Shown piece by piece: positions 8,706 through 28,473 of a stretch of 64,000 nucleotides of DNA. The position numbers and the translations under genes were made by a program. The notes beneath the pieces are model-generated. The model did not search any database. It saw only the letters and a list, made by a program, of their open reading frames with translations, and had not been told where the DNA came from. The stretch comes from a virus (taxonomy: Duplodnaviria > Heunggongvirae > Uroviricota > Caudoviricetes): IMG/VR virus record IMGVR_UViG_3300027007_000013; one strand, given 5' to 3'. Each line of letters begins with the position of its first letter. Positions within the stretch are counted from its first letter, which is position 1.

Positions 8706-8908
8706 CTATGCGATGTGGAGACATTCCCAGTGCGACGTCGTCGTCTTCCTGTCCACACTCTATCACTATGCCTCACGATGATTGAACGCGCCCCAGCGCC
8801 GGAAACCGGCAACGGCGTGACACCCATCGAACCATGCTACGTCTGTCGATTACCAGCAGTCCTATCAGATATACATATATTTAATACCTTACCAGTCCAA
8901 GGATAAGT

Positions 8909-9277
8909 ATGGCAAGAAAAAGCCACCCGGCGGAGCAGACGTGGGACGAGCGGGTCGTCGAGCAGCTGGAGTCGCTCGAGTACGTCGAGCACGTGCACCT
9001 GGACGGCGGCGAGCGCGACTACATCGCGGGACAGCGCGACGTCGACCGCATGACGTGGGTCGTGAAGCTGGACGAGTCGACGATCCAGCAGATCGAGTTC
9101 GTGGAGGGCGCCGACGAGTTCAGCGAGACGCTGCGGGGCGTGCGCAACGACCTGGAGCTGGAGCTGGGCCTGGCGCCGGGCGACTCGTGGATGGAGTGGG
9201 ACGAGATGGCACGCGGGACGATCTACGTGACGGGCACGCACGACAACCGCCCGGGCGGGAGCGACGTCTTCCGCTGA
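8909..9277 (+). CDS. cassette protein with MARKSHP N-terminus, acidic
   Basis: ATG lies inside the conserved 5' hairpin; 122 aa. Confidence 0.55.
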   Translation: MARKSHPAEQTWDERVVEQLESLEYVEHVHLDGGERDYIAGQRDVDRMTWVVKLDESTIQQIEFVEGADEFSETLRGVRNDLELELGLAPGDSWMEWDEMARGTIYVTGTHDNRPGGSDVFR

Positions 9278-9397
9278 GCGCGGCGTGGCGCGGTTACCCG
9301 GCAACGGTTGGCGTCGAGGGACGTCGGTGGTTCGAGTCCACCGCCGGGCGTTGGGCCGAAAAGACCCGGGACTGGCCCGCCCGAACGGAGCGACAGA

Positions 9398-9702
9398 TGA
9401 GTGAAGAACTCGCGCCCGCGGCGGAGCGGGCACTGGCGGAGGAGCACAGGGACGAAATCGCGCTGACGATCATCGACGACGCCGTCGAGCTGTACGAGCT
9501 CGTGTCGCGTGTCGGCCTCATCGCCGAGGATGCAGCCGCCGAGCTCGAGTTCGTCGACGAGCAGGAGGGCTCGATCGACGACGTCCACATGGCGGTCGAC
9601 ATCCTGAACGAGCTCGACGACAAGCTCGTGTACATGAACCGACAGAAGCGTCATGTCGAGAGCCTGCTGAACGAGCTGGAGCTCGTCGAGGAGGACCTGT
9701 AG
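9398..9702 (+). CDS. hypothetical acidic protein
   Basis: internal ATG of ORF 8941..9702; the upstream part of that ORF is a GC-frame artifact overlapping 8909..9277. Confidence 0.5.
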
Positions 9703-9703
9703 A

Positions 9704-9871
9704 TGCCCGAGATCGAGGTGTCGGGCGACGTCGTCAAGGCGCGCCACTTCGGCGAGGTTGATGGCGAGTACGCGAAGCTCGTTGTCCACCGCGACCTGCT
9801 GGCTGACGACGAGAAGGCGACCGTCATCCTCGACGAGATGCGTGACGCGATCGCGCAGGAGGGCCGCTGAT
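9704..9871 (+). CDS. hypothetical small protein
   Basis: 55-aa ORF MPEIEVSGDVVKARHFGE..., tightly packed in the operon. Confidence 0.4.
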
Positions 9872-10067
9872 GCACGACACGTGTCAGTGTGAGGCGTGCA
9901 AGCTGGAGCGCCAGCGCGAGTACGAAGCGTCGTACCCCGAGCAGGCGCGGCGGGACAAGCTGGAACTGGGCGCTGAGGCGACGACCGAGTTCGCCCGCGA
10001 GGAGGCGCTGCTGCTGAAGACGGGGATGACCGAGCGCGACGCGCGGGCCCGGGGGCTGATCGACTGA
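9870..10067 (+). CDS. hypothetical small protein
   Basis: 65-aa ORF overlapping the upstream stop. Confidence 0.45.
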   Translation: MHDTCQCEACKLERQREYEASYPEQARRDKLELGAEATTEFAREEALLLKTGMTERDARARGLID

Positions 10068-10233
10068 TGACCGCGATGGACGACCTGCGCGTCGAGCGAC
10101 AGCACTCGCGCTACGCGGTCGCGTTGGAGAACATCGAGGCGCTCGCGCACGACGGGCTCGAGCAGATGAGCGTCGAGGAGAAAGACGCGATCCTGCGTGA
10201 GATCGAGACGGTCGCGACGGAGGCGTTCGAATG
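10066..10233 (+). CDS. hypothetical small protein
   Basis: 55-aa ORF MTAMDDLRVERQH... Confidence 0.4.
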
Positions 10234-10662
10234 AGCCGTCCGGCGGAGAAACGCGCGGCCGCGATGATGGAGTTGCTGGAGGAGGACGGGACGATGAGCG
10301 AGGGACACGACGACTCGACCGACCCGGAGTGTTGGCGGGAGTCGTTCCTGGAGAGTGCGTTCGAGGAGGCGTCGACGATGGTGACCCGCGCTTCGATGGC
10401 GTACGACGAGGAGCACGGTGAGATGAACGACGAGATGCACCCGATGGACGTCATCCGCGGGGAGAACCTGCTCCGCGTCTACGCGACGAGTCGGCCGTGG
10501 GCGATCCCGGTCGTGGTGGTCGAGGTCGCAGAGGCGCCGGCGTACTTCGACGAGCACAGCATGCTGACCGACGTTCGGGAAGTGTACGCCCGACGAAAGC
10601 CGGGGCTGTCGGAGGACCCGACGCACGTGAAGATCCAGATTCGTCCCGGGAGGCCACGGTGA
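10231..10662 (+). CDS. hypothetical acidic protein
   Basis: 143-aa ORF. Confidence 0.5.
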   Translation: MSRPAEKRAAAMMELLEEDGTMSEGHDDSTDPECWRESFLESAFEEASTMVTRASMAYDEEHGEMNDEMHPMDVIRGENLLRVYATSRPWAIPVVVVEVAEAPAYFDEHSMLTDVREVYARRKPGLSEDPTHVKIQIRPGRPR

Positions 10663-10835
10663 GCGACGTGGCGCGCGAACCCGGTGAGTCGTCGGTGGCC
10701 GAGATGTCGACGGAGTCGCTGCTGTTCCAGACGGCGATGAACGATCGCTATGGTGGCGAGGTCGCCGACCTGATCGACTGGGATCTCGACGTGGAGATGC
10801 GTCGCGAGCTCGCGTCGCGAGGTGTCGAATGGTAG
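10659..10835 (+). CDS. hypothetical small protein (GTG start)
   Basis: in-frame GTG abutting the upstream stop. Confidence 0.35.
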   Translation: MSDVAREPGESSVAEMSTESLLFQTAMNDRYGGEVADLIDWDLDVEMRRELASRGVEW

Positions 10836-10940
10836 TGTACGCCGCGACAGCCCTGGTCGTCTGGCTCGGTGGCCTGTTCGTCCTGTGGCTCGTGTTCATG
10901 GGGACGAAGCAGACAATCGAGCACAGGAGGGCCGAGTGAT
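10832..10940 (+). CDS. small hydrophobic single-pass membrane peptide
   Basis: MVVYAATALVVWLGGLFVLWLVFMG..., 36 aa. Confidence 0.3.
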
Positions 10941-11199
10941 GGCGAACTTCGGATGGTCGTACCCACCGGGCGCGGCGAACGACCCGGCGGCGCCGTACAA
11001 CGAGCCCGAGCGACCCGAGCCCGGGACTGTGATCACGCACGACGTCGCGGAGGCGTACTGCTCGACCTGTGACGAGACGATCGGGCCGCAATCACCGGAC
11101 GTCGTCGCGGACATGCTCGTCGCAGAGCACGAGGGGCACCTCGTCGAGGTGGAGTCGTGGACGGAGGAGGAAGTGTGGGAGGGTGACGATGCCCGGTAG
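10939..11199 (+). CDS. hypothetical protein with CxxC
   Basis: 86-aa ORF containing CSTCDE. Confidence 0.45.
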   Translation: MANFGWSYPPGAANDPAAPYNEPERPEPGTVITHDVAEAYCSTCDETIGPQSPDVVADMLVAEHEGHLVEVESWTEEEVWEGDDAR

Positions 11200-11353
11200 C
11201 TACGAGCGCCACCTGGACGAGTTCGGCATCTGTCGCTGCGGGGCGTCCCGCTCGGGAACGGAGCCGATGTCGCTGGAGTACCAGGACGACATGACCGGGC
11301 GATGGGTAATCGAGCAGGTGCCGGCGTGCGCTGACTGTTTCGGGCTGCTGTAG
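11189..11353 (+). CDS. hypothetical Cys-rich small protein
   Basis: 54 aa, with CRCG...CADC. Confidence 0.4.
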   Translation: MPGSYERHLDEFGICRCGASRSGTEPMSLEYQDDMTGRWVIEQVPACADCFGLL

Positions 11354-11762
11354 CCCAGCGCCCTTTCCGCTTTCGCGCGCCGCCCCGCGCCCGCCCTGTC
11401 TGGTCCGTCAACTCCGCGAGGTGATAGTAGAGGATCTGATTAAATGCAGGAATCGTGATGTGAATACAACCCATCTACCCCCACCGCCGTGGGCCCTACT
11501 CGGCGACGCCTTCTGACGGCCGTAGCCCCTACCCTCCAGGGTTGGCTCACGGCCCCCCACGCCCCGTGTACCGGGATTCATGCGCCTGTCTACGCCTGTC
11601 TCATTTCATACTCTCCGATGATACGACCCCCTCTGTTTCATCTCCGCGACCCGTCGCGTCAAACCGGCGGTGTATCAGATAGTAGAAACATTTAATATCG
11701 TATCACTCCAAGGATAAGATAGGACACCGGTCAAAACCGGTGGCCAACTGGAGTGACCAGAG

Positions 11763-12221
11763 ATGGCAAACGAGACCCAGGCGACTGAGGCACAGCAGAC
11801 GACCATCGCGGGCGACGTCGACGTCGTCGACCCAACGCAGCACGTCGTGGGCTTCAACGCGAAGACGATGAAGCGCGCGAAGTGGGAGGAGTACGACTTC
11901 GTGGTGACGGAGTCCGGCAACGTCGAGGTGCGCAACGCGTCCTACGGGGACGACGCGGACGAGCACACGTACCACGTGGTGACTGACGCCGCGGGCATCC
12001 CGAAGTGGTGCCTGCACGCGCTGAGCGACGCGCACGAGGACGACTGGAAGCCGTGCCCGGCGATGGCCTACCACGCGGCGAAGAAGAACAAGGCGACGGG
12101 CCTCGAGACCGACGAGCTCGTGGCGCGGGGCGAGTACAGAGTGTGCAAGCACGCTCTCGCCTACGCGCGCAACGAGGCGATCGTTCAGGCGGTCCGCCGC
12201 GTCAAGCAGGGTGACAACTGA
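11763..12221 (+). CDS. SWIM-type zinc-finger-like protein
   Basis: C..H...C..CKH pattern (KWCLHALSDAHEDDWKPCPAMAYH...CKHALAY); preceded by a 5'-hairpin variant and a GGAGTGA Shine-Dalgarno-like element. Confidence 0.5.
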   Translation: MANETQATEAQQTTIAGDVDVVDPTQHVVGFNAKTMKRAKWEEYDFVVTESGNVEVRNASYGDDADEHTYHVVTDAAGIPKWCLHALSDAHEDDWKPCPAMAYHAAKKNKATGLETDELVARGEYRVCKHALAYARNEAIVQAVRRVKQGDN

Positions 12222-12412
12222 TGTCGTGCCCGAATTGCGGCGGGGAGACCGGGCCGAACCCGGTGCGCGACGACCCGCGGACGCCGGCGATGGGCGGGCA
12301 CGATCCGGGACCGACCGTCGTGTTCTGCTCGGCGGAGTGTGTCGAAACGTATGACGGCGACCCCGTGCCGGCCACGTGGGGCATCGCTATCAGCAGCCCG
12401 GAGGGACAGTGA
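12221..12412 (+). CDS. small zinc-ribbon protein
   Basis: MSCPNCGG...CSAEC. Confidence 0.45.
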   Translation: MSCPNCGGETGPNPVRDDPRTPAMGGHDPGPTVVFCSAECVETYDGDPVPATWGIAISSPEGQ

Positions 12413-12639
12413 TGTTCCTGTTGGATGTCTACGCGGACGCTCACGACGAGTACCCGGTGCGGACGCTCGAGGCGACTGGTGTGGGGACGGCGGTGCTGAC
12501 GGCGGCCCGGACGGCCGAGTCCCTCGCGGACGAAGCGTGCCGGCTCCAGGTCGGCGCTGCTGGCGAGGATGAACTGTTCGAGATGTTCCCCGACCCGGGG
12601 CATGGGACCGTGGTGGTCCGGGAGGTCGGTCGCCGATGA
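12412..12639 (+). CDS. hypothetical protein
   Basis: ATG overlapping the upstream TGA. Confidence 0.4.
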   Translation: MFLLDVYADAHDEYPVRTLEATGVGTAVLTAARTAESLADEACRLQVGAAGEDELFEMFPDPGHGTVVVREVGRR

Positions 12640-12830
12640 ACGACGTCGAGTACGCGCTCTCCTGTGTCGAGATCGTGCACGGCTACCGCGATTACGTTCC
12701 GGAGGAGGTGCTGATGGGCGAGCCCGAGGTCGAACGGTTCGACAGTGCAGTGGCGAAGCTCGAACGCGCGATCGAGATGATCGATCCCGACGACCTCGCA
12801 GCCTACCACCAGCAGCGGGAGGCCGAGTGA
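12636..12830 (+). CDS. hypothetical acidic protein
   Basis: 64-aa ORF. Confidence 0.45.
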   Translation: MNDVEYALSCVEIVHGYRDYVPEEVLMGEPEVERFDSAVAKLERAIEMIDPDDLAAYHQQREAE

Positions 12831-13009
12831 TGGTGGCCCGGCCGCGGCGCTGGATGGTGGTGACCGACGCCTGGACTGACGCTGAGTCGCCCGTGTTCCG
12901 TCGCATCCGGTCGAAGTTGGAGGCGCACAAGCTGGCACAGTTAACCGTGCGAGCGTACGACGATGGACGCCCGGTCGATGTCGTGGAGGACCTGAGCGAT
13001 GAGCGGTAA
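12830..13009 (+). CDS. hypothetical protein
   Basis: internal ATG of ORF 12569..13009. Confidence 0.4.
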   Translation: MVARPRRWMVVTDAWTDAESPVFRRIRSKLEAHKLAQLTVRAYDDGRPVDVVEDLSDER

Positions 13010-13124
13010 CGTGCGCTGGCGGGGCCAGGAGTTCGGCGACGGCCAGTTCATCGTCTGGGAGGGTGACCCGAACACGTCGAAGGCGTACGTGGCCGGGACG
13101 CCAGTCCCGAACGAGCCCTGAGCT
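13002..13124 (+). CDS. hypothetical small protein
   Basis: 40-aa ORF followed by the conserved 3' boundary element. Confidence 0.3.
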
Positions 13125-13333
13125 GTTCCGCTTTTGCGCCGCGCCCCGCCGCTCGCCGACCCTGTCGTGTTTTCCTGTCGCCCCCTCGCGCGGCGTGGTG
13201 CGGCAACCCGGTGCCCTTGCGATGTCTCGGGTTTACCAGCAGTATCAAGTTATTAACATATCTTTATACTCGCTCCTCTCTTAGGTTAGGATAGGCACTG
13301 GGGAAACCCGGTGGCCATCTGGAGTGAAATCGA

Positions 13334-14998
13334 ATGGCAAGCAGTGACAACGACGTGGAGTACAGCACGGGACAGATCGGCGTCGACGAGGAGCGTATCA
13401 TCGACGAGCTGATCTTCAGCCAGGCGGAGGGCATCGTCGACGGCATCCGCGAGCTGGCGCAAAACGGCGTCGACGCACCCGGCTCGACGAAGGTCGAGAT
13501 CAACGTGACCCCGGAGCGGACGGTCGTGGTCGACGACGGAGACGGGATGGACCTGAGCGACGAGTCGGTCCGGGAGTTCCTGACGAACCTGGGCCAGTCG
13601 ACGAAGATCGACGATGAGGAGACGATTGGCCAGTTCGGCATCGGCTTCGGTCAGGCGCTGGCGGTCGGGAAAGTGATAGTGCACAGCCAGGACTCGAAGG
13701 TCGAGTTCGACGCGAAGAACTGGTTCCGCGACTACCGGCTGTACGAGGCCGAGGAGCACTTCGACGGCACGAAAGTGACGATCGAGCACTACGAGGACGA
13801 GGTGCCCGAGGCGGGCGCGAGTGAGTGGTCCGACCACCTCGCCGACATCCGCACCCGGTTCCAGTACATGGAGCTGGTCAAGGGCGTTGAGGTGTGGCTG
13901 AACGACGAGCAAGTATCCGGATACGACCCGGCTGAGGACGATGAGAACGCCACCGTCTACGACTCGGAACTGGCGTACATGGTCCTGAAGCACGAGAGTT
14001 ACGACTGGATAACGGTGTACTCGGCGGGCCTGAAAGTCACGGACGTCCGCGGCCACGGCATCGGGGGCACCGTGATCACGAAGCGCAACCTCGAGCTGAA
14101 CACGGCGCGGAACAGCATCCGGTCTGGGTGCGAGGTCTGGCCCGAGGTCGAGGCCGAGATCGAGGAGGCACGTGTCGAGCTCCTGGACGCCGTCTCTGAT
14201 TCGAAGCTGACGAACAGTGGTCGCGCGGCCGTGGGCCGCCTGGCCGCCCAGGGACACGAGGGGTTCGAGGACCGCGAAGTGTTCAAGCTGGCGAACGGTG
14301 AGATGACCACCCTCGAGACGATCCAGAGCCGAGACAGCATCATGTTCGCTGACCAGACGGACAAGGCCGGGGGCAAGCTGGCTGACCACGGGAAGACCGT
14401 CCTGATGCGCAGCGATGGCGCGGTTCAGGCGATTCGGGAAGCGGTGAACCTCGGTCAGCTGAGCATCCCGGAGACGAAAGACGTCCAGGCGTCGGCGGCC
14501 GCGATGGGCATCGCGAACGGCTACGAGATCCTCGAGCCCGAGGAGTTCCACAGCAAGCCCCTGGCGATGGCCCGCATCCTGCGGGAGAAGATGGAGCAGT
14601 ACAGCCCCTACGCGCTGGACCGGGAGATCGTGGCCGGAGCGGATAGCGGGGCCAACGCGTGGACGAAGCCGGACCCGTCGACCCTGAACCCGGTGGAGAC
14701 GGCGGCGATCGCCGACTCTGAGTTCGAGTCGTTCGTCGCGATCACGGACACCGCCTACAGCCAGTTGGCGAGCGAGGTCCTCGTGCTCGAGCTGTGGCGC
14801 ATCCTGGCTCACGAGTTCGCCCACACGGAGGATTCGACGGGTGAGCCGTCCCACGGGTCGGGCTTCGCGATGCGCTTCCGCAAGATCCTCGACAAGACCC
14901 AGCCGGCGGCCGTCGAGCTCCTGAACGAGATTCGCCAGGATGGTGTCACGGCAACGTTCGAGCGATACGACCACGGCGTCCCACACGCCCGCGCCTAA
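13334..14998 (+). CDS. GHKL-family (Bergerat-fold) ATPase with a C-terminal HExxH motif
   Basis: N-box ELAQNGVDA, G1 VVDDGDGM and G2 GQFGIGFGQA resemble Hsp90/MutL/MORC-type HATPase motifs; C-terminal LAHEFAHTED. Preceded by the cassette promoter and hairpin. Confidence 0.7.
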   Translation: MASSDNDVEYSTGQIGVDEERIIDELIFSQAEGIVDGIRELAQNGVDAPGSTKVEINVTPERTVVVDDGDGMDLSDESVREFLTNLGQSTKIDDEETIGQFGIGFGQALAVGKVIVHSQDSKVEFDAKNWFRDYRLYEAEEHFDGTKVTIEHYEDEVPEAGASEWSDHLADIRTRFQYMELVKGVEVWLNDEQVSGYDPAEDDENATVYDSELAYMVLKHESYDWITVYSAGLKVTDVRGHGIGGTVITKRNLELNTARNSIRSGCEVWPEVEAEIEEARVELLDAVSDSKLTNSGRAAVGRLAAQGHEGFEDREVFKLANGEMTTLETIQSRDSIMFADQTDKAGGKLADHGKTVLMRSDGAVQAIREAVNLGQLSIPETKDVQASAAAMGIANGYEILEPEEFHSKPLAMARILREKMEQYSPYALDREIVAGADSGANAWTKPDPSTLNPVETAAIADSEFESFVAITDTAYSQLASEVLVLELWRILAHEFAHTEDSTGEPSHGSGFAMRFRKILDKTQPAAVELLNEIRQDGVTATFERYDHGVPHARA

Positions 14999-15280
14999 GC
15001 GGGCCGTGGCGCGGCAACCCGGCGTCGGACCGGCGTGATGCTGCGGATCGAATCCGCCCGACGTCCTGGCGGCCTTCGCTACTGTCAAGTGAAGTGACCG
15101 CCTACACCCGCCTGGATGGGTCGGAGCCGTTTGTGGTAGGCTCATAGGCGGTGCGCCCGACCCGTCCCACTCCAGGTGGCCACGGCGTTTGCGATCGGGC
15201 TGGCTCCCTCGGGAGCTAAGTGGTCGCGACCGCGGGGTATCGCTCCCCGTGTCACCTTTCGTACTGATTGCTCTGATACC

Positions 15281-15318
15281 GTGTACGTACGTACAGACGC
15301 GTGTGTACGTACATACAG
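15281..15318. repeat. GTACGTAC-containing palindromic element (variant of the 34-bp palindrome family)
   Basis: GTGTACGTACGTACAGACGCGTGTGTACGTACATACA, downstream of the GHKL gene. Confidence 0.6.
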
Positions 15319-15416
15319 CCTTTCGGAATCCTGACTTGTCAGAACCCTTTATTACCGTATCCTGAGAAGGATTACATGGACCTCGAGAAAGCCGAGGCCA
15401 GCTGGAGTGACCAGAG

Positions 15417-15728
15417 ATGACAGATACAGCACGACTTGTCGTGAATGGCTATGTGGAACCGAGCGAGCGAGATACCCGAATTGTGTCGATCCTGGGGAGT
15501 CTGGCCGGCGTCCCGGACGGCCACCAGTTCGACTATCGCGGGATGACGATCGAAAAGCGCGTGACGACCGAGCGAGCGCGGCGCGAACCCGAGATCGCTG
15601 TCTACGACCCTGACGGCGAGTACGTCGACCAGTTCCAACCGCTCCTGTTCTCGTCGTACGAGATCGTGGAGATGCTCGACGAGATGCGAGCCTACTGGGT
15701 CGAGGAGAGTCGCGCCACGGCACTGTGA
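15417..15728 (+). CDS. hypothetical acidic protein
   Basis: preceded by a 14-codon upstream ORF (15376..15420) inside the hairpin module and a GGAGTGA element. Confidence 0.5.
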   Translation: MTDTARLVVNGYVEPSERDTRIVSILGSLAGVPDGHQFDYRGMTIEKRVTTERARREPEIAVYDPDGEYVDQFQPLLFSSYEIVEMLDEMRAYWVEESRATAL

Positions 15729-15860
15729 TCGTGGCCGCGACAGCGGTCGCAGTCGTGGTCGTCGGCCTGTGGCTGTTCTACGCCCTGGTCGTCTACCTCG
15801 AGTTGTGACCGAAAACTGGTATTTACCGCGTGGGGCCTACCGTGACATGGAGTACCAGAG

Positions 15861-16181
15861 ATGCCCCGACCGATCGAACGGATGGGTTGTGTTGCCGACC
15901 GACTGAGCGACGAGTGGGAGCTCGATGACATCGTGATCGAGCCGTCGGCGACCGTGACAGCAATCTACCGTCACGTATCCGGGGCGTACGTCATGTGGTC
16001 GGCCGACCCGGGACACACGGTACAGTTGTGGGAGGCCGACGGATCGGTCGAGACGTGGCTCGATGACGACGAGTTCGCTGACCTGGATTCGGCGACCGAA
16101 ACTGTCCAGACCTGCGTGGAAGTCATCGAACATGCGACCAACCGCGCCCTACCACCAGCAGCGTCGACCCCGCGCCCGTAA
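15861..16181 (+). CDS. hypothetical acidic protein
   Basis: 106 aa, with the GGAGTACCAGAG leader. Confidence 0.5.
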   Translation: MPRPIERMGCVADRLSDEWELDDIVIEPSATVTAIYRHVSGAYVMWSADPGHTVQLWEADGSVETWLDDDEFADLDSATETVQTCVEVIEHATNRALPPAASTPRP

Positions 16182-16356
16182 CGTTCCGCTTTTCCGCACC
16201 GCCTGCGCCAACCTGTCGACTTCCCGATTCAGTCTGACCTTGCTACGTTGTGTGATTACGGGCAAACACCTCAGATATACATATATTAATATTCACTCCA
16301 CCCTTAGGTAGAAGTAGGCCAGGAAAACTGGCCCACCCGAACGGAGATAGAGAAAG

Positions 16357-16506
16357 ATGCGATACAGAGTCTACGGTACGCACAGTGGCAACGAGTTTCA
16401 GGCACCTGTCGACGCAGTCGATGCGAGTGACGCGGTCGACGAGTTCCTCGAGTCGGTCGAGGACCCGACCGAGTTCAGCGACGTCGAGGCCGAGGTCTGG
16501 GGGTAG
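16357..16506 (+). CDS. hypothetical small acidic protein
   Basis: 50-aa ORF 10 nt after the GGAG that follows a hairpin variant lacking an ATG. Confidence 0.4.
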   Translation: MRYRVYGTHSGNEFQAPVDAVDASDAVDEFLESVEDPTEFSDVEAEVWG

Positions 16507-20711: not shown

Positions 20712-20915
20712 ATGGCACGAAAATGCCTCCCGGACGGGTACAGCTGGACAGTCGACGGTGAAGACGCGCAGACGACCGAGATCTACGTCGAGAACGCAGA
20801 GGGTGAGCTGATCGGCAAAGACCACGTGGCGTCGCAGTTCGTGCGAACCGACGCCGAGCGCGAGGAAGTTGCGGCGCAGATCGCCGCGGGTGAGCGGGGG
20901 CGTCAGTTCCAGTAG
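20712..20915 (+). CDS. cassette protein, MARKCLP start
   Basis: 67 aa. Confidence 0.5.
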   Translation: MARKCLPDGYSWTVDGEDAQTTEIYVENAEGELIGKDHVASQFVRTDAEREEVAAQIAAGERGRQFQ

Positions 20916-21029
20916 AGCGGCGCCGACTGTCGGTTTTACGCCGTGCCCCGTCGACCATGCGACGTTCAGCGGAAGTCGACAATATCAGCTGTCATACATA
21001 TATTCATATTCGCTCCCGACCAAGATAAG

Positions 21030-21146
21030 ATGGGGAGAAAAGCCCCACCCGACGGAACCATGAGCTACGCGACCCACGTCCAGATCCGGAAGTTGCAGAG
21101 AGCGAGAGACAAGAGCCGCTGGCCGAGCGACGAGGACGACGAGTAG
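21030..21146 (+). CDS. small cassette protein, MGRKAPP start
   Basis: 38 aa. Confidence 0.4.
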   Translation: MGRKAPPDGTMSYATHVQIRKLQRARDKSRWPSDEDDE

Positions 21147-21179
21147 CGGGGCCGCCGCGGCCCCCTCGCCGACGCGTGT

Positions 21180-21209
21180 GTACGTACATACGCGCCCATA
21201 TGTACGTAC
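21180..21209. repeat. palindrome GTACGTACATA-CGCGCCCA-TATGTACGTAC (family variant)
   Basis: perfect 11-bp arms. Confidence 0.8.
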
Positions 21210-21330
21210 GCCCATCTCGAACCCTCACGTGCCCGAGCGCGGCAAACCGGCACCCTGCGACGTCCGTCACAAGTCGACACATATCAGCCGCTTTACGTGT
21301 CTTTAATACCCTACCAGCCCAAGGTATAGT

Positions 21331-21693
21331 ATGGAAGCCAAAAACTTCCCACCGCGAACGGTGCAGAGCGCAGAGCCAACCGACGTCGTCGAAGAAGACG
21401 GCTACCGAGTCCTGACGTACGAGGACGTCGACGTCGACATTCGGATCTCGCGGACGATCAGCCCCGAGACGCCGAAAATCTGGGTCGCCGGCGACCGACT
21501 CGACACGCAAGTGGAGACGGTGACCGACGTCGAGTTCCTCGGCTTCGAGCTCTGGCGATACACCTACCTCGAGGGTAAGCCGACCCATGCCGGTGAGGGT
21601 CGACACCGAGGCCGATTCGCCGAGGTCGAGATCGAGGAGAATCACTACGGCGAAGACGAAGTCCACGAGTTCAGCCTCAGGGTCAAGCGGTAG
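21331..21693 (+). CDS. cassette protein, MEAKNFP start
   Basis: 120 aa. Confidence 0.55.
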   Translation: MEAKNFPPRTVQSAEPTDVVEEDGYRVLTYEDVDVDIRISRTISPETPKIWVAGDRLDTQVETVTDVEFLGFELWRYTYLEGKPTHAGEGRHRGRFAEVEIEENHYGEDEVHEFSLRVKR

Positions 21694-22100
21694 ACGGGGC
21701 TGACGCCCGGTTTCGCGCGCCGCCCCGCCGCCCGACGACCCCTGTTTCCACTCCGTCTGGTCCAACGCGGAATAGTAGAGGAAATTATTATTTGCAGAGA
21801 TCGAGCCCTGAATACAACCCGCCTCAGCGAGGTTCATGGGCGCTACACGTCGGCGAGTTTTGTGAGGCATGGCTCCTACCCCTTCGAGTTGGCTCACGGC
21901 ATTCCGAGCGTCGTGTGGACGGTGTCTCCGCGAGGTTCGTGGGCATCTCAGGAAATGCCCCCTGATGATACGAGAACCCCTGTTTCCCTTCCGCGTGCCG
22001 CGTCACGCGAATCCGGCACGCGCCATGCGACGTCGACGTCCATCCAGCAGTAACAGCCGTCTTACATATCTATATACCTGCACCACTCTTAGGATAAGAT

Positions 22101-22478
22101 ATGGGAACCAAAAACCCATCCGAAGCGGAACAGAGCGACGAGATCCTCCCGGCCCTCGACCACCGCGGACTGACGGGCCACGGCAAGGCCCGACTCGAGG
22201 AGAGCGAGCTCGTGACCCCGTACCTCGTGCGGACCCTCCAGGAGGCGGACCCGGCCATCCTCCGGGCCCTCTCGCAAGTGGCTGACGCCGCCGCCTCGGC
22301 CCGGTACGGCCCCATCCAGGCCCAGCTGGCCAAGGACGAAAGCGCGAGCCGCGAGATCCAGCAGCAGTACTGGAACCAGCTGGACGACGTGAAGGGCCTG
22401 TCCCTCCTCTGCACGGAAATCCTGCGCGACGAGCGTGACGGCGTGCCCAGCGAGGACGACCCGAGACTCGGCTTCTAA
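22101..22478 (+). CDS. cassette protein, MGTKNPS start
   Basis: 125 aa. Confidence 0.55.
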   Translation: MGTKNPSEAEQSDEILPALDHRGLTGHGKARLEESELVTPYLVRTLQEADPAILRALSQVADAAASARYGPIQAQLAKDESASREIQQQYWNQLDDVKGLSLLCTEILRDERDGVPSEDDPRLGF

Positions 22479-22844
22479 CGCCGACCAGCGCACTACCACC
22501 AGCAGCGGCTGGCCTGCGCACCGGTTTTCCGCCGTGCCCCGTCGCCCACGTGACCCTCGTTTCCGCTCCGCCCGCGACTGTCTCGTGCGATCGTCGCGCC
22601 CTGCTTGCGTACGTGTCCCCCCACTGTTACGCTCGTCACGCCTGCGTTCGCGGCCTGTGCTATCCGCGTCCGACCCCTGTTTCATCTCCGCGTGCCAAGG
22701 CGCGGCAACCCGGTGGCGTCCCCGTCAGCAAACGGGCCCTTTCTGCAAGCAATCCGACACTGAAATCTATAAAACGCTGTCTCAAGCCCTCTACACGAGG
22801 ATTTAGACCAGAACCTTTATATCAAATCAAGTTCAAGAAGAAGT

Positions 22845-23084
22845 ATGGAATCAAAAATTCCATCCCGGACGGAGAGTGGCGAGAGTGTCGAAATCGCAGT
22901 CGGTCACCGAGCGGAGAGCGACGTCATCGCGCGGGCGCTCAACGAGAAGGCGCGGGAAGCCGAGCTCGAAGCGGAGCGGGCCGGGCCGAAAACGCAGCCC
23001 GTGCACGAGCTCGACGCCGCCGTGCTGCGAAGCGCCGCCGCCGAGTTCGAGCGCGAGTACGCCGAGTGGCGCGAGGAGCGATAG
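22845..23084 (+). CDS. cassette protein, MESKIPS start
   Basis: 79 aa. Confidence 0.5.
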   Translation: MESKIPSRTESGESVEIAVGHRAESDVIARALNEKAREAELEAERAGPKTQPVHELDAAVLRSAAAEFEREYAEWREER

Positions 23085-23086
23085 AG

Positions 23087-23248
23087 ATGCGCCCCGACGT
23101 GATCGAGTGGACGGGCGAGGCGCACCTGGTGACGACGGGCTGTGACGAGTGCGGGCGATCGTTCTCGATCGACGAGGACAGCGTGCGGTGGGCGGACGAG
23201 CGCGGACGACCCGTGTTCTGCGACTCGTGCGGGTCGGGAGGGCTGTGA
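23087..23248 (+). CDS. small zinc-ribbon protein
   Basis: CDECG...CDSCG. Confidence 0.45.
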   Translation: MRPDVIEWTGEAHLVTTGCDECGRSFSIDEDSVRWADERGRPVFCDSCGSGGL

Positions 23249-23353
23249 GATGCGGCGGCTGCGGACGGCGCTGCTGGCGGCGAGCGTCGTGACGCGGATC
23301 GTCGCGTTCCCGGCGGTGTTGGCTGTCGCGCGGGCCCGAGCGAGGGTCGTGCG

Positions 23354-23569
23354 GTGAGTTCCGTGCAGCGGCGGTTGTTCGAGGAGTCGGCGGTCGGGGC
23401 GGTCTGGGTCGAAGACAGTGACGGGGGTCGCGCGCTGGTGACCGTCGAGCGGCACCCGACGGTGTCGATGGGACGTCTGCTCGAGGCGCTCCGGGGACGT
23501 GACGACGTCGAGACGGTGCGCCAGACGACAGCGACGCACGTCGAGGCGATCGTGCGAGGTGACGCCTGA
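23354..23569 (+). CDS. hypothetical protein
   Basis: 71 aa; followed by a 27-aa hydrophobic peptide ORF at 23569..23649. Confidence 0.4.
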   Translation: MSSVQRRLFEESAVGAVWVEDSDGGRALVTVERHPTVSMGRLLEALRGRDDVETVRQTTATHVEAIVRGDA

Positions 23570-23746
23570 TGCTGGTGGTACTGCTCGTTGCCCTGCTCGT
23601 GGTGCTGTTCGGCGTCTGGCTCGTGCTGGCCGCGGCTACCGCGTTCTAACCTCGCGCGACGCGCCGCGGCAACCCGGTGAATCGGTCTAAGGGCTGTTAC
23701 TACCGCATCACTGATATTTAATACCTCATGCGTCGAAGATGAAGAT

Positions 23747-24208
23747 ATGGGACCAAAATCCCACCCAACGGGCGATGAAGCGAGCGATGAAGCGAGCGAC
23801 GACGTCGTTGTCGTCGATGAGTGTGCGACGTGGGTCGGGCGACGCGAAGACGTGAGTGAAGACGAAGCCGTCGCCGCGATGAGCGATGTCGAGCGGGCCG
23901 TGAAGCGGGTCGCAGACGAGCGATGGGTCGACGTCGTGCGGGTCGCGATGTGCGACGACGAAGTGCGGGCCGTCGTGAAGATGAAGCAGTGTGAAGGGCC
24001 GGGTGCGGGCGCGACGACGTGGGCGAGCGCGTTGTGCGACGTCGAGTTGGGCGACGGGCGCGAGCGCGAAGTCGATGTGAGCGTGACGTTGCCGGGCCGT
24101 GAAGGGATGTCGGGCGATGTGATGGGCGAAGTCGAAGTCGACGGGCGCGAGTGGGAAGTGCGACGTGAAGTGTGGGTCGACGAAGACGGGCGCGAAGTCG
24201 GGCCGTAG
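23747..24208 (+). CDS. cassette protein, MGPKSHP start
   Basis: 153 aa, extremely acidic. Confidence 0.5.
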   Translation: MGPKSHPTGDEASDEASDDVVVVDECATWVGRREDVSEDEAVAAMSDVERAVKRVADERWVDVVRVAMCDDEVRAVVKMKQCEGPGAGATTWASALCDVELGDGREREVDVSVTLPGREGMSGDVMGEVEVDGREWEVRREVWVDEDGREVGP

Positions 24209-24335
24209 CGCGAGCGTGGGCGACGTCGCCGCCGGGCGATGTCGTCGCGTGTCGGTTTCGCGCCGCGCCACCGCCCAACCAGCAGTTACAGCCGGAACAC
24301 GTGCCTATATATCAGTATCATGAGAAGTAAGAAGT

Positions 24336-24674
24336 ATGGAACCGAAAAGTTCCCACCGAGCGGAGTACAGTGAGCCGCCCATCGAGCTGGCGAATGCCGT
24401 GCGACGCGGCGAGCACTACCTGCTGGGCGACGTTGGAGAGTTCGTGGTCGACGAGATCGCTGTTGGGTACCCAGTCGAGGAGCGAGACGGCGTGGTCGCC
24501 CCGAACCGCGAGGCGTTCGTCACGCGTATCGAGTTTGTGGCGCCGGGCGAGTGTATCGTGATGGGTCTTGCCGAGCTCGAGGACCGCATCGATCGAACCG
24601 ATGTGTTGCCCCTGACCGTGCGCGAACGCGATGAGGAGCTGCACGCGGAGTGGGAGAGCCACGGGCTGCTGTAG
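24336..24674 (+). CDS. cassette protein, MEPKSSH start
   Basis: 112 aa. Confidence 0.55.
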   Translation: MEPKSSHRAEYSEPPIELANAVRRGEHYLLGDVGEFVVDEIAVGYPVEERDGVVAPNREAFVTRIEFVAPGECIVMGLAELEDRIDRTDVLPLTVRERDEELHAEWESHGLL

Positions 24675-24778
24675 TCGAGGCGCACCGCTGCGGTCCGCTT
24701 TTGCGCCGTGCCCCGCCGCTCGTCGCTGCTATTACCGGTACGCTGACACTTATACTTGCACGAGTGGTAGGTAGAAGT

Positions 24779-24970
24779 ATGGTCAGAAACGACCACCCGA
24801 ACGGAGAGCTGAGCGAGTACCAGAAGGCGAACGAGCTGAGCGACGACGAGTTGCGACAGCGCGTGATCGAGCTGCGGAGCGAGCCCGCGCCGCTGGTGGG
24901 AGTGGACAGCGAGTTGGAAGCCGCCGAGGAGGTCGCGCGAGACCGCGGGCTCGGGCTGGGGATGAGCTGA
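24779..24970 (+). CDS. cassette protein, MVRNDHP start
   Basis: 64 aa; the ATG lies in the hairpin, slightly upstream of the ORF-track start. Confidence 0.45.
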   Translation: MVRNDHPNGELSEYQKANELSDDELRQRVIELRSEPAPLVGVDSELEAAEEVARDRGLGLGMS

Positions 24971-25117
24971 TGCTGGGCCACAGCGGGCCGTTCTGTCCGG
25001 ACTGCGGTGCAGAGGGACTGAGCGATGAGTGGGTCGAGGGCGGGCGACGGATGGTGGCGCGACAGTGCCCAGAGCCGAGATGTAGCTCGTACTGGGAGTA
25101 CGAGGTGGGCTGCTGAT
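24969..25117 (+). CDS. small zinc-ribbon protein
   Basis: CPDCG...CPEPRC. Confidence 0.35.
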
Positions 25118-25346
25118 GCAGCGACGGATCGACGCGACCGTGGTGATCGGGAGCGACCGAAAGACGGTGTCGGTGTGGGTCGACGAAGACGCGTCCGATG
25201 CGACCCGCGAGGCCGCGGTCGAGGAGATTGTCGGCGACGTCCGGTCGTGGGAGAGTGAGCCGGTCGAGCTCGAGGGATGGGGCGAGACGGGCTGGGTCCA
25301 GGGCGATGGCCGGGACGCGATGCCCCGCCGCGAGCCCGGCTGGTAG
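25116..25346 (+). CDS. hypothetical protein
   Basis: 76 aa. Confidence 0.45.
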   Translation: MQRRIDATVVIGSDRKTVSVWVDEDASDATREAAVEEIVGDVRSWESEPVELEGWGETGWVQGDGRDAMPRREPGW

Positions 25347-25718
25347 CCCCGCCTCGCGATTGTGGCCAGTGTCGGTTTTGCGCCGTGCCCCGCCGACCCC
25401 TGCTTCCGGTCCAACGACGCTGTCCAGCGGATTGAGCCGACTGTGCGCCCGCATCTGACTGTCTCCGGAGGGTCCAAGGGCGTCTCACGTCGGCGTGTTT
25501 CTGACGCTGTGACTCCTACCCTGTAGGGCCTGCTCACGGCGTTTTGACGCCTGTGCGGACACTGTCTCCCGGCGTTCTGTGAGCGTCTCAGGCTGTCGCT
25601 TGCCGTGATGTCGTACGCATGTCATGACCCCTGTTTCCACTCCGCGCCACGTCGCGTCAAACCAGCAGTATCAGCCGCCAAACATATCTATATACTTGTA
25701 CCCTGAGAAGCATAAGAT

Positions 25719-25961
25719 ATGGGAAAGAAAAGTCCCACCCGAGCAGAACTGGCACAGAAACGCCGCGGCATCGTCAGCGCGCTCCCGTTCACGTGCCCGA
25801 CCGAGCGAGGCGACCAGATCGTGGTGCACGTGCAAGACCGCAAGCTGGAGAAGTTCGAGCGCGTCGCGAAGCAGCTCGAGCTCGAAATCGTCGACCGCGA
25901 AGACGGCGGGAGTTCGCAGCAGGGCCGGCGCCTGCGCATGACGCTGGAGACGGCCTCGTGA
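25719..25961 (+). CDS. cassette protein, MGKKSPT start
   Basis: 80 aa. Confidence 0.5.
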   Translation: MGKKSPTRAELAQKRRGIVSALPFTCPTERGDQIVVHVQDRKLEKFERVAKQLELEIVDREDGGSSQQGRRLRMTLETAS

Positions 25962-26111
25962 GCCGCGTCGTCCGGGTCCCGCGTCTCGGCGACCGCCGTA
26001 ACCCGTGCACCGTCATGCACGAGACGCACACGGGTCGCCTGAAAGTGCGCGACCGCTACGGCTACGCCCTGCGGGTCGACCCCGAGGAGGTCGTCGAGTA
26101 GCGCAACCGCC

Positions 26112-26633
26112 ATGTATCGCGACTACGAGATTCGATTCGAGCCGATGGACTGGCCGACGCCCGTGTACGTCAGCGAGGACGAACCCAGCCCCGACGCGGT
26201 CGACCCGATCGAGAACTGGAACGTGAAGCCGGTCGGTGGGCTGTGGACAGCACCGCTGCTCGATGACAGCGACGGCCTCGCGACCGCCTGGACAGAGTGG
26301 ATGAACGCCGAGCAGTACGTCCCGTATGGCGAGAACGCTCGCCTGTACGCCCTCGAACCGCGTGACGACGTCGACCTGTTCGTGGTCGACAGCCTCGATG
26401 CCGCGAAGGAGCTGTACGCGTTCGGCGACAGCGGACCGGCCGAGGTGCTCTCGAGCGCGGTCGACTACGAGGCGATCGTCGACGAGTACGACGGCGTCCG
26501 CCTGACGCATGAGGGCCAGATCGACACGCGCCTGTCGTGGGAGGCGAATCTGAACGGCTGGGATTGTGCGTCGACGGTGTGGTTCGACTGGTGCTTCGAG
26601 TCGGTCGAAGACCTGGGCCCGCTGGAGTTGTAG
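26112..26633 (+). CDS. hypothetical acidic protein
   Basis: 173 aa. Confidence 0.55.
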   Translation: MYRDYEIRFEPMDWPTPVYVSEDEPSPDAVDPIENWNVKPVGGLWTAPLLDDSDGLATAWTEWMNAEQYVPYGENARLYALEPRDDVDLFVVDSLDAAKELYAFGDSGPAEVLSSAVDYEAIVDEYDGVRLTHEGQIDTRLSWEANLNGWDCASTVWFDWCFESVEDLGPLEL

Positions 26634-26793
26634 CCGGGCCCGCTTTTGCGCCGTGCCCCGCCGTCAGCCGACAGCAAACGGGCCTGTTCTGTGGACCGTT
26701 CCGTCCTGTTTTCGCGGATTCGGGCGTCTCAGGCCGTCTACGCGCGGAATGGTGTGGGAAAACTATATACCTGTAAGTGTCCAAGTATAAGAT

Positions 26794-26991
26794 ATGGGAC
26801 AAAAAATCCCAACCCGACGGAGAGCGACGCCGGCGAACCTCGAGCAGAGACTCGCCGAGATCGAGCGAGAGCTGCGGGCGATGAGCCGGGGCGACGTCGA
26901 CGCAGGGACGTGCCGCTGGCTGCTGGAGGAGAAAGCCGAGCTGCGAGCCGAGCGCAACCGCCTGTTCGCGGCGACGGGGCGGTGGTCGTGA
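26794..26991 (+). CDS. cassette protein, MGQKIPT start
   Basis: 65 aa. Confidence 0.5.
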   Translation: MGQKIPTRRRATPANLEQRLAEIERELRAMSRGDVDAGTCRWLLEEKAELRAERNRLFAATGRWS

Positions 26992-27129
26992 TGAGCGACG
27001 ACGAGTTCCCGGGACCCGCGCCGATGGGCGCACGACCGCCGGACGTCGTCGAGCGGGCGAAGGAGATCGCGTACGGCGAGGTGTCGGCGACGTCCGAAGA
27101 AGTCGCCTGGGCGCTGGAGGTGATCGCGG

Positions 27130-27369
27130 ATGAGCGATGAGTTGCTGGGCGTGATCGAGGTCGAGAGCAGCAAGCCGTACGTGAAAGACGTGTACGACGT
27201 GGTCCGCGTCGATGGGCCCGATCTCGAGACGGTCTGCGTCGAAGCTGGCGAGCGCCACGAGCTGGGCGACCGCGTCCGCTGGCCGAACGAGCTCGTGACG
27301 GTGATGTCCCGGGCGACGCTGTACGACCCCGACGGCAACGAGATCGAGATGGCTGAGCTCGGCCGATAG
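27130..27369 (+). CDS. hypothetical protein
   Basis: 79 aa. Confidence 0.45.
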   Translation: MSDELLGVIEVESSKPYVKDVYDVVRVDGPDLETVCVEAGERHELGDRVRWPNELVTVMSRATLYDPDGNEIEMAELGR

Positions 27370-27645
27370 GGCCCCGGCTCCCGCCTCGGCCTACGCGCGC
27401 CAAGGCGCCGCAACCCGGCAACGCGTGTGGGTACGTACCGACGTGTGTGTATGTACAGACGCCGACCCCGAACCCCGATTCGCCCGACCGGCTGCACTAC
27501 CACCAGCAGCGACCGGCTCAGCCGACAAAAAACGGGCCCACATCACGACGGTTTTCACGCGCGGAATCCAAAACGAACGCCTCAGGGCTCCTACGCGCGG
27601 AATGTGACCAGAAACTATATACCTGTCAAAGTACAAGTATGTAAT

Positions 27646-27882
27646 ATGGAATCAAAAATTCCATCCCGACGGAGCAGCGAAGCGTGCGAGAACGGTGTCG
27701 AGAACGCGATCAGTGAGCGAGAACGTCGCCTCGTGCGGGACGTGACGGCCATCGTCAACGAGCTCGAGACGATCTCGCAGCACGACGAGATGCTGAGCGG
27801 GCGAATGACGAAGCAGTGGGCCGAGGGGCTGTGCGACGCAGTCGACGAGTTCGCCGAGTCGGACCCGCACGCGCAGGAGTAG
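27646..27882 (+). CDS. cassette protein, MESKIPS start (last cassette of the array)
   Basis: 78 aa. Confidence 0.5.
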   Translation: MESKIPSRRSSEACENGVENAISERERRLVRDVTAIVNELETISQHDEMLSGRMTKQWAEGLCDAVDEFAESDPHAQE

Positions 27883-28473
27883 GGCGGGCGAGCGGGCTTT
27901 TTTGTGGGCGCTGATGTCGCGTGCCGATTTTCCGCCGTGCCCCGCGCCGCGTCGTCCAGCCGAACGGTGGGTGTCGTTCCCGTGGGCGCTCGAGCTGACG
28001 CCGTGTCGTACGGTGACGCTCTGACCCGTGCAGTCGGTCGCGTCGTACGGCGGGCCCCCTGAACGGCGCCCCACTAAAGTCAAATTTTAGATATATCCTC
28101 GTTTCGACCTACTTTTCAGGGCACACCGCTGTGAGAGGTGCGTATCGACAATAATCTATCATAACCCCTCCCGAATAGCTCCCCATAACCCTGTCTTCAA
28201 CGATGTCGCCCGTCCACGTCCCCATTTGTCGGGCACACCGATTTTCAGGCACTCGCCTCTGGTGGTAGTGAGTTTCGGTGACATGAACCATATCGATTGA
28301 CCTGTATGTACCCATATTTCGAATCATAACGAAAATTATATATCCGCTTACTGACTATCTTAGAATGTCCCTCCCGTGGAACGGAGTGACGCATTGCATG
28401 AAGCGAACGCACGACCGGCCTGGAGACCCGGTCACGTACCCGAGTAGCACCGCACTCACTACCACCAGGGACG

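Follow-up and report, generated by a model that had tools for sequence, protein, structure and literature searches.

The DNA analysed here is a 64,000-nt stretch of the virus record IMGVR_UViG_3300027007_000013 (Caudoviricetes), called the window throughout, and its most conspicuous feature is an array of small genes between roughly 8.8 and 28 kb. The array holds about 50 + strand open reading frames (ORFs) with a median length of 71 aa. These genes are punctuated by 19 copies of a repeated module of 90-150 nt, all on the + strand and all within 8813-27688. An earlier note had described 19 small-gene cassettes that share a promoter, a 5' hairpin and an N-terminal peptide, and had read the cargo as acidic proteins of the kind that phages use against host defences. 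The 19-copy array indeed lies where that note placed it, as the same 19 sites are recovered by a nhmmer profile and by a hairpin-only covariance model. The profile, seeded with four copies and iterated once on the 64-kb window, gives E values of 1.7e-29 to 1.2e-10 for the 19 copies. It finds none in the remaining 45 kb of the window and none on the - strand, its sole additional match (E=0.008) being a partial upstream half that adjoins module 13. The covariance model leaves the window otherwise empty at E<=1. Repeat finding on the window gives many overlapping families with coinciding copies. The repeat is real and strongly non-random. No Rfam family reaches its gathering threshold in a scan of the whole window. 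The G+C content of the array (0.62-0.66) exceeds that of the rest of the window (0.52-0.61) and is 3-8 points higher than in the structural and metabolic part, which could reflect cassettes of different origin or constraints in GC-rich spacers.

Anchored at the A of ATGG (or of AGG), the module copies align gap-free from about -35 to +4. Many begin with a GC-rich segment (GCGCGGCAACCCGGTG, CCATGCGACGT). The upstream motif that follows occurs in three or four variants: about 11 copies have CAGCAGTATCAGCCG, others are of the GATAAAGAAAC or AGAAAC types, and a further variant is of the CGCGCGGAAT type. An AT-rich box with the consensus ttTata spans about -30 to -24 relative to the anchor, as part of a sequence at about -37 to -24 that resembles a transcription factor B recognition element (BRE) with its TATA box. 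The TATA box ends about 23 nt 5' of the A(T)GG. The conserved proximal element AAGGATAAG(A/T) occupies -12 to -2 and is followed by A(T)GG, the hairpin and CCCGAnCGGAG. The part order given in the earlier note (upstream motif, TATA, AAGGATAAG, ATGG hairpin, CGGAG) is borne out in the aligned copies. The literal strings quoted there are consensus-like composites, because their matches are approximate or absent. The 15-mer CAGCAGTATCAGCCG fits the modules loosely, with eight sites at <=3 mismatches against 1.6 expected and five of the eight in + strand modules, but a 29-mer has no match at <=3 mismatches.

The geometry of the module is constant and agrees with that of mapped haloarchaeal promoters. 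Primer extension on the HF2 repeats placed the start of the TATA box at -26 and the BRE at -33 to -37 (Russ et al. 2021, PMC8707807). Because this mapped geometry matches, transcription is predicted to start at, or roughly one base before, the A of ATGG. The modules thus look like repeated transcription-unit heads, as first proposed, with each TATA at the right distance from a shared predicted start and with a hairpin at the 5' end.

The copies fall into two classes. In class A, with 15 copies, the ATG is in frame with a downstream ORF that has a high-low-high GC pattern over codon positions (high third-position G+C). Among the 16 ATG-bearing copies 15 are in frame, which by our own arithmetic would happen with a chance of about 8e-7 if frames were random. 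The figure of 16 in-frame copies among 19 that had been reported is corrected to 15 of 19, as the ATG at 15376 opens a 13-codon dead end and three copies carry AGG. Class B comprises four copies with anchors at 11721, 13293, 15378 and 16316, where the anchor is AGG or the dead-end 13-codon frame. Their stem is longer and has a GAAA, CAAA or other A-rich loop, followed by CTGGAGTGA or CGGAG, with an ATG 30-42 nt further. The GGAGTGA of this class is similar to the complement of the 16S rRNA 3' end. Class-B copies are kept at syntenic genes in both relatives of the element that are introduced below. An internal start led by a Shine-Dalgarno sequence was also considered for class A and rejected, as the copy at 8909, the one translated through the motif, has no in-frame start codon at Shine-Dalgarno distance past its GGAG. 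The modules are as follows.

8813-8945, + strand: module 1, class A; ATG 8909 in frame with a 122-aa ORF; hairpin TGGC/GCCA
11628-11766, + strand: module 2, class B; AGG 11721, no ATG; CACCGGT-CAAA-ACCGGTG, CTGGAGTGA, ATG 11763
13189-13338, + strand: module 3, class B; CACTGGG-GAAA-CCCGGTG with a U.G wobble, GGAGTGA, ATG 13334 (GHKL ATPase)
15331-15420, + strand: module 4, class B; ATG 15376 opens a 13-codon frame; CCTCG/CGAGG, GGAGTGA, ATG 15417
16218-16361, + strand: module 5, class B-like; AGG 16316; GGCCAG/CTGGCC, CGGAG, ATG 16357
17295-17440, + strand: module 6, class A; ATG 17400
19666-19795, + strand: module 7, class A; ATG 19762; BRE-like AGAAAC
20009-20154, + strand: module 8, class A; ATG 20112
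20609-20740, + strand: module 9, class A; ATG 20712
20933-21063, + strand: module 10, class A; ATG 21030; hairpin TGGGG/CCCCA
21228-21375, + strand: module 11, class A; ATG 21331; hairpin GGAAG/CTTCC
21994-22138, + strand: module 12, class A; ATG 22101; the ortholog in a relative has another module subtype
22754-22890, + strand: module 13, class A; ATG 22845; hairpin ATGGAAT/ATTCCAT
23655-23787, + strand: module 14, class A; ATG 23747
24233-24377, + strand: module 15, class A; ATG 24336; hairpin GGAAC/GTTCC
24676-24819, + strand: module 16, class A; ATG 24779; hairpin TGGTC/GACCA
25634-25752, + strand: module 17, class A; ATG 25719
26700-26830, + strand: module 18, class A; ATG 26794; gives the N-terminus MGQKIPTRR; the relative's homolog starts MR, with no module
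27555-27688, + strand: module 19, class A; ATG 27646

A small hairpin is found at the predicted 5' end of each unit. With the first 24 nt folded, it starts at nt 1-5 in 19 of 19 copies and at nt 1-3 in 18. The modules have a mean minimum free energy (MFE) of -6.8 kcal/mol. Internal gene starts of the array average -4.6 (n=31; Mann-Whitney p=0.002), and random 24-mers average -4.2 (p=1e-4). The 19 copies contain 13 different stems of 4-8 bp with A-rich loops of 4-9 nt, such as TGGC/GCCA, TGGGA/TCCCA, ATGGAAT/ATTCCAT, GGAAC/GTTCC, TGGTC/GACCA, CACCGGT/ACCGGTG and GGCCAG/CTGGCC. Covariation was scored over 46 distinct copies, taken from three lineages together with a few sites of the haloarchaeal virus HGTV-1. 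The score is 0.388 versus 0.149 +/- 0.023 in shuffled sets, with 0 of 500 shuffles reaching it, double-change cells number 42 versus 12.9 in shuffles, and every slid register scores lower. Aligned with MAFFT, the 19 hairpin segments yielded no RNAalifold structure, since loops of unequal length throw the 3' arms out of register, and the covariance model and a direct stem table were used instead. The covariance-model alignment also shifts some 3' arms, and its 72% of paired cells and its G.U counts are therefore imprecise. U.G wobbles are present in orthologous class-B stems, which points to an RNA structure in the sense strand. The differing loop lengths put the CGGAG-like motif in any of frames 0, 1 and 2 counted from the ATG. 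The conserved entity is the nucleic acid, since four hairpins lack a usable ATG, the downstream motif stands in three frames and the stems covary. The shared N-terminal peptide of the earlier note is real inasmuch as the first 4-6 residues are alike across unrelated proteins, but it is a by-product.

Comparison with relatives shows how the array changes. The GHKL protein of unit 3 served as the anchor for finding them. Relative 1, with a GHKL protein 79% identical, is represented by the IMG/VR contig 3300027007_000012 (88.6 kb) and by ENA ORDC01000044 (154.8 kb). Relative 2, with 66% identity, is the 148.9-kb plasmid CP058532.1 of Halorarum halophilum, compared over 21.7 kb around the GHKL anchor (67707-89383, here L031). 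The compared piece of relative 1 is called L040. The fetched part of relative 1 contains 14 modules and the 21.7 kb of CP058532.1 contain 12. No modules surround the GHKL homolog (46% identity) on the Halalkaliarchaeum desulfuricum chromosome. The window is colinear with relative 1 over 8.8-19.4 kb and from 28.2 kb onward, at 68-84% DNA identity, apart from a few small gene replacements inside. From 19.4 to 28.2 kb there are five short matching segments only, most window cassettes have no counterpart, and the order of the shared cassettes is permuted. The cassette-like layout suggested earlier is thus upheld: the relatives hold the flanks and the left half, and right-half cassettes were gained, lost, reordered and re-headed. 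The turnover comparison rests on one close relative, that with 79% GHKL identity.

19447-28230, + strand: hyperplastic half of the array, mostly single-gene units; conserved DNA resumes at 28230

Two junctions are informative on how cassettes acquire their heads. The window protein at 26794 starts with MGQKIPTRRRATPANLEQ, and its homolog in relative 1, which begins MRRSTPADLEQ, has no module and follows immediately on the gene before it. At this junction the window has an additional gene, a T-tract element (see below) and a module that are absent in the relative. At 22101 the orthologs are 84% identical and their modules belong to different subtypes, with homology beginning near +30. The module therefore behaves like a unit that may be added or exchanged at the head of a gene, donating its first codons. 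Indels and replacements are bounded by the motifs in that each variable cassette begins with a module. Not all turnover is module-bounded, however, because three small window genes (12221-12830), which lie in an otherwise colinear unit of several genes and away from any module, are replaced. The aligned interval there is 12224-12820 of the window against L040 8959-9523, which in the 79% relative consists of unrelated DNA.

The ends of the units carry a repeated element as well.

8534-27955, + strand: 13 copies of the T-tract element CCGCTTTTGCGCCGYGCCCCGCCG, putative terminators, at 8534, 11360, 13119, 18878, 20533, 20923, 21699, 22513, 24244, 24687, 25362, 26630 and 27914

The element is confined to the + strand and to 8.5-28 kb of the window, and it is also found in the Halorarum element. 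Twelve of the 13 T-tracts mark the close of a unit, starting from 3 nt ahead to 86 nt past the stop codon of its final ORF, and the one at 8534 precedes module 1. The element would most simply be an oligo-T terminator. The T-tract at 8534-8572 and module-like GC hairpins also occur within 8255-8827, where the JGI record places a 190-aa ORF on the - strand. The predicted product has an isoelectric point (pI) of 12.0 and 6% aspartate plus glutamate (D+E), compared with a pI of about 4.4 elsewhere, and this ORF is probably spurious and the region non-coding.

Few cargo genes resemble known families. Two array proteins are recognised by family profiles, and both lie inside the array as had been noted.

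13334-14998, + strand: GHKL-type ATPase (HATPase_c_3, Pfam), the lone gene of unit 3
18948-19460, + strand: HNH endonuclease with a weak helix-turn-helix (HTH) domain (phrog_7545, E=1e-17), with no module of its own

The HNH endonuclease is the sole significant match among the 49 non-GHKL array proteins scanned with Pfam and PHROGs. Its gene follows the T-tract of unit 6 and precedes module 7, and both relatives have it at this position with 76-79% identity. This free-standing gene looks like a resident homing-type endonuclease. CxxC pairs occur in a few of the small array proteins. The small proteins are acidic, as claimed, but this is not distinctive: the array proteins have a median pI of 4.47 and 20% D+E, against 4.41 and 19% elsewhere in the window. 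An acidic proteome is the usual haloarchaeal signature.

We consider it likely that the array is made up of 19 archaeal transcription units, autonomous and each headed by a copy of one portable regulatory module, and that the element which carries it is virus-like, plasmid-sized and haloarchaeal. The modules would act as promoters for the host RNA polymerase, with the upstream motif variants probably serving as regulator sites. Initiation would take place no more than about 3 nt from the A of ATGG. From a start predicted there, 15 units would be leaderless, and the first 15-25 nt of these transcripts would fold into a stem-loop that includes the UG of the AUG. A class-A module would also donate the start codon and about 8-10 codons to the following gene. 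The four other units would carry a longer 5' stem-loop in a 40-nt leader, followed by the Shine-Dalgarno-like GGAGTGA and an internal ATG. Units are predicted to end at the conserved T-tract element. The hairpin would most likely mark the 5' end of the sense RNA, protecting it from 5' decay or setting the level of translation. Its role is the least secure step of the mechanism, with 5' protection, timed translational control and recognition by a factor as candidates. Because the same 60-150 nt are repeated 19 times in one orientation, the repeats might also serve as a substrate for recombination, by which cassettes would be added, removed, reordered and re-headed.

Several points weigh against this account. 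Promoter, start, leaderless status and termination are deduced from spacing and analogy. A hairpin over the AUG looks costly and should hinder translation more than help it, given that in bacteria start-codon accessibility is among the features that determine how efficiently leaderless messages are initiated. The class-A hairpins are weak, at -4 to -7 kcal/mol at 37 C, and 17% of random 24-mers drawn from this GC-rich DNA reach the module mean MFE. Where they sit, what loop they have and how their stems covary is all that distinguishes the module hairpins from random sequence. The alignment behind the covariation score was itself fitted to the model, and the counts overstate independent events because the copies are paralogs. 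A run of merely 3-4 T is a weak archaeal terminator. Finally, the lone well-resolved indel (26794) is not a simple module-by-module crossover.

Other explanations place the selected function in the peptide, in the duplex DNA or in mobility. The shared peptide M-[GAE]-x-K-[SNI]-[HP]-P might have been selected as a protein tag for targeting, capsid packaging, processing or turnover, which would fit the in-frame ATG in 15 of the 16 copies that have one and the similar first residues of otherwise unrelated proteins. Such a tag is improbable in view of the four copies that hold the hairpin and downstream motif without a usable ATG, and of CCCGAnCGGAG standing in all three frames through loop-length differences. 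In addition, the covarying stems change the residues themselves (MARKSH, MGQKS, MESKIP, MVRNDH, MEAKNF), and conservation extends 5' of the ATG through the TATA box. We find it equally hard to believe that the inverted repeat at +2 to +20 is a duplex-DNA operator for a dimeric regulator at the start site. Overlap with the predicted start is typical of repressor operators, and an HTH protein is encoded nearby (667-1302) and an HTH-HNH protein inside the array. However, one regulator needs one sequence, and the 19 copies present 13 arm versions with complementarity kept, while loops of 4-9 nt make the half-site spacing vary. The U.G wobbles would be A-C mismatches on the opposite strand, and G.U outnumbers A.C by 19 to 3 in the model alignment, a count that is partly misalignment. 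The idea that the modules are copies of a mobile element, resembling a miniature inverted-repeat transposable element or an integron attC site, and not regulatory sequence, appears the most far-fetched. The many dispersed copies with an inverted repeat and the observed cassette gain and loss speak for it. Yet the modules have a single orientation, a fixed register to the next ORF and a TATA at promoter distance, and they donate a start codon. Moreover, their inverted repeat is merely 4-8 bp, the aligned flanks show neither terminal inverted repeats nor target duplications, and no integrase is found among the 20 window ORFs scanned outside the array.

Two further proposals concern the cargo and the RNA. 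The cassettes might mainly encode anti-restriction or anti-defence proteins, acidic DNA mimics among them, with the array as an early locus under fast evolution, which would be compatible with the 19 promoter-headed units. This is rather doubtful. Small ORFans in a hyperplastic region with rapid cassette turnover suit the proposal, and the element has evasion genes elsewhere, encoding DpdA (50987-52255) and an Eco57I-type methylase (3309-6827). Acidity, which had been taken as a hint of DNA mimics, is no evidence of them because all proteins of the halophilic element, including those for capsid packaging and metabolism, are equally acidic. The 49 array proteins show no profile similarity to Ocr/ArdA-like anti-restriction families in Pfam and PHROGs, and nothing anti-restriction-like was returned by these libraries, which are general ones, with no dedicated anti-defence collection searched. 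More speculatively than the promoter-headed units, the 5' stem-loop with CCCGAnCGGAG might be a virus-specific RNA tag of a post-transcriptional regulon, though we think this rather unlikely. A viral or host factor would then recognise these 5' ends, on leaderless messages and on the leadered ones of class B, and stabilise the tagged RNA, license its translation during host shut-off or cleave it at GGAG at a set time, as T4 RegB does. The tag would be portable, together with promoter, start codon and about 9 codons, and shared with HGTV-1.

HGTV-1 provides the closest precedent for the array. This haloarchaeal virus measures about 144 kb, a size similar to that of the relatives' contigs (149-155 kb). 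In a review, a conserved TATA-like box with an inverted repeat is said to precede most ORFs of one arm and is likened to the PeSL (promoter-early stem-loop) motifs of phage T4 (Sencilo et al. 2013, in PMC3950731). The likeness to the window lies in a long same-strand array of small ORFans, each with a TATA-like box and inverted repeat module, and the window has 19 such modules on 19 units. In the HGTV-1 array (NC_021328, 128-143.6 kb, - strand) we found a stem-loop CTCCTCGTGGCACGAGGAG and GGTATATAAA, then cgaaagaCTTAATAC at about -29 to -23, AGT and ATGG. A small hairpin from nt 1-3 is present in 21 of 33 genes, sometimes followed by CGAnCGGAG. The inverted repeat of the review may be either the upstream stem-loop or this ATG hairpin. 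Profiles detect each other's modules: the window profile finds array modules of HGTV-1 and nothing else there, at E=5e-5, and the HGTV-1 profile finds seven window sites, all of them modules. The core from TATA to ATGG hairpin is cross-detected reciprocally at E of about 1e-4 to 1e-5, for which descent, transfer or host promoter constraints are possible. The upstream half of the HGTV-1 module (the CTCCTCGTGGCACGAGGAG stem-loop and GGTATATAAA) is absent from the window, and conversely no counterpart was seen in HGTV-1 of CAGCAGTATCAGCCG and the other upstream motifs, the T-tract and the Shine-Dalgarno-bearing class B. Protein comparison gave three weak matches, with two-thirds of HGTV-1 examined. 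The core thus appears to be common to two otherwise unrelated large haloviruses.

The PeSL motifs of T4-type phages might be a functional analogue for the modular shuffling. They combine a terminator with a promoter and lie in hyperplastic regions (Arbiol et al. 2010, PMC2839356; Comeau et al. 2014, PMC4122927), and indels and swaps map to them, for which homologous recombination between repeats was proposed (PMC2839356; PMC4122927). In both systems a short repeated stem-loop with a promoter, or in the window a promoter-like box, punctuates clusters of small, variable and mostly unknown genes, and the window likewise has conserved flanks, a hyperplastic interior, permuted cassettes and swapped modules. 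The T4 motifs contain a sigma-70 early promoter and a terminator hairpin, whereas the window has a predicted archaeal BRE/TATA and a stem-loop inside the message over the start codon, with the putative terminator as a separate T-tract. The window module, unlike the T4 motif, contributes coding sequence. Recombination in the window array is deduced from sequence comparison.

The earlier note had also mentioned the intergenic repeats of HF1/HF2-type haloviruses, and this link did not hold. Those repeats contain BRE/TATA promoters whose activity and start sites were shown experimentally (Russ et al. 2021, PMC8707807). HF2 has seven class I (58 bp) and two class II (29 bp) repeats over 77 kb and on both strands, with the beta motif TCTTTAAGTC and gamma motif CGTCTNNTAGAG in class I and CCCTTTAC in class II (PMC8707807). 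Repeated intergenic BRE/TATA sequences in a haloarchaeal tailed virus and conservation across the initiation region are common to both, but no ATG hairpin is described for the HF repeats. The class I motifs are at chance level in the window: TCTTTAAGTC has two one-mismatch sites against 1.4 expected, both outside the array, and CGTCTNNTAGAG has eight sites against 4.8 expected, none within a module. The window is unrelated to those viruses. The array does not resemble an integron either, as no integrase is found among the 20 scanned ORFs outside the array, each cassette has its own TATA, and the repeat is 5' with a 4-8 bp stem. Known from HGTV-1 are PeSL-like promoter cassettes. New are the covarying start-codon hairpin, the leaderless and leadered classes predicted here, the unit-end element and the examples of module gain and swap.

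The element itself has few close relatives in the collections searched. Megablast of 8-28 kb and 30-50 kb against 50,697 phage records gave no match. The large terminase subunit (TerL) is best matched by Bacillus phage BCD7 at 31% identity, HGTV-1 TerL reaches 25%, and no HF-type virus is among the 30 TerL matches listed. A first gapped DNA pattern searched in IMG/VR gave 26 single chance matches, none confirmed by the profile, and another pattern gave nothing. A pattern scan of a genome collection returned five bacterial chance matches and missed Halorarum, and the hairpin pattern alone recovered the 79% relative. CP058532.1, deposited as a plasmid of a cultured haloarchaeon, has the same module array and syntenic genes, and could represent a provirus of this virus group in plasmid-like form. 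The GHKL protein is found on contigs of up to 320 kb, and the window's own GHKL protein also occurs on the 320-kb contig. The window element may accordingly be free, integrated or misassembled. Beyond the array, the window encodes an Eco57I-type methylase, DpdA, ribonucleotide reductase, ThyX, an SPFH protein and an HTH protein.

667-1302: HTH protein (family scan)
3309-6827, - strand: Eco57I/MmeI-type methyltransferase fusion, 1172 aa (family scan)
44129-44941: ThyX
50987-52255: DpdA-family protein (7-deazaguanine DNA modification; family scan)
58586-61576: class II-like ribonucleotide reductase with a TSCPD domain

Because DpdA, the Eco57I/MmeI-type methyltransferase, ThyX and ribonucleotide reductase are encoded, the element probably modifies its own DNA.

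Other repeated sequences occur in and around the array. A non-coding spacer of roughly 250 nt, conserved at about 70% identity, stands three times in the window between T-tract and module.

11397-11648, 21745-21995 and 25403-25646, + strand: conserved non-coding spacer, roughly 250 nt

Spacer copies in the relatives lie at L040 8144-8384 and 17147-17375 and at L031 17061-17299. The spacer has a BRE/TATA-like sequence of its own (ATAGTAGAGGA..TGATTAAATG), with GAATACAAC about 25 nt on. No conserved ATG was seen in it and RNAalifold gave no consensus structure. The spacer may contain a second promoter or encode a non-coding RNA. The 12-mer GCTGGTGGTAGT has 20 sites at <=1 mismatch on both strands of the window, against 0.1 expected, for example at 7232, 17020, 22492, 23571, 27496, 30920, 33357, 35463, 41620, 48224 and 53700. 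Several copies lie 2-30 nt past stop codons and others within genes, and the reverse complement of the 12-mer has ACCAGCAG in common with the upstream motif of the module. Palindromic elements rich in GTACGTAC/ACATAC give 24 matches in the window against 4.7 expected, with examples at 6909-6924, 15283-15316, 21176-21213, 27427-27460, 35478-35511, 42371-42406 and 63131-63166. Three of them are in array spacers and one is immediately 5' of the large terminase gene, and the 36-nt copies at 42371 and 63131 are identical. They may form a further class of regulatory or promoter elements.

One promoter and 5'-end design is present here in 19 natural variants within the same genome, in a field where the timing and shuffling of accessory genes in archaeal viruses are little known. 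It also offers a natural comparison, the 5' hairpin being shared by predicted leaderless units and by those with a Shine-Dalgarno-like leader. With a related element residing in the cultured Halorarum halophilum (CP058532.1), it is feasible to map start sites and test reporters. The PeSL idea of repeated regulatory cassettes driving modular exchange had covered T4-type phages and one halovirus, and the array extends it to a second, unrelated lineage of archaeal viruses, with a module that brings both regulation and coding sequence. If the AUG hairpin is functional, it would bear on the control of leaderless translation and of 5' decay in haloarchaea. If the hairpin and the motif that follows it are an RNA tag, the tag would be shared by this element and HGTV-1 at least, two giant viruses of haloarchaea that are otherwise unrelated.

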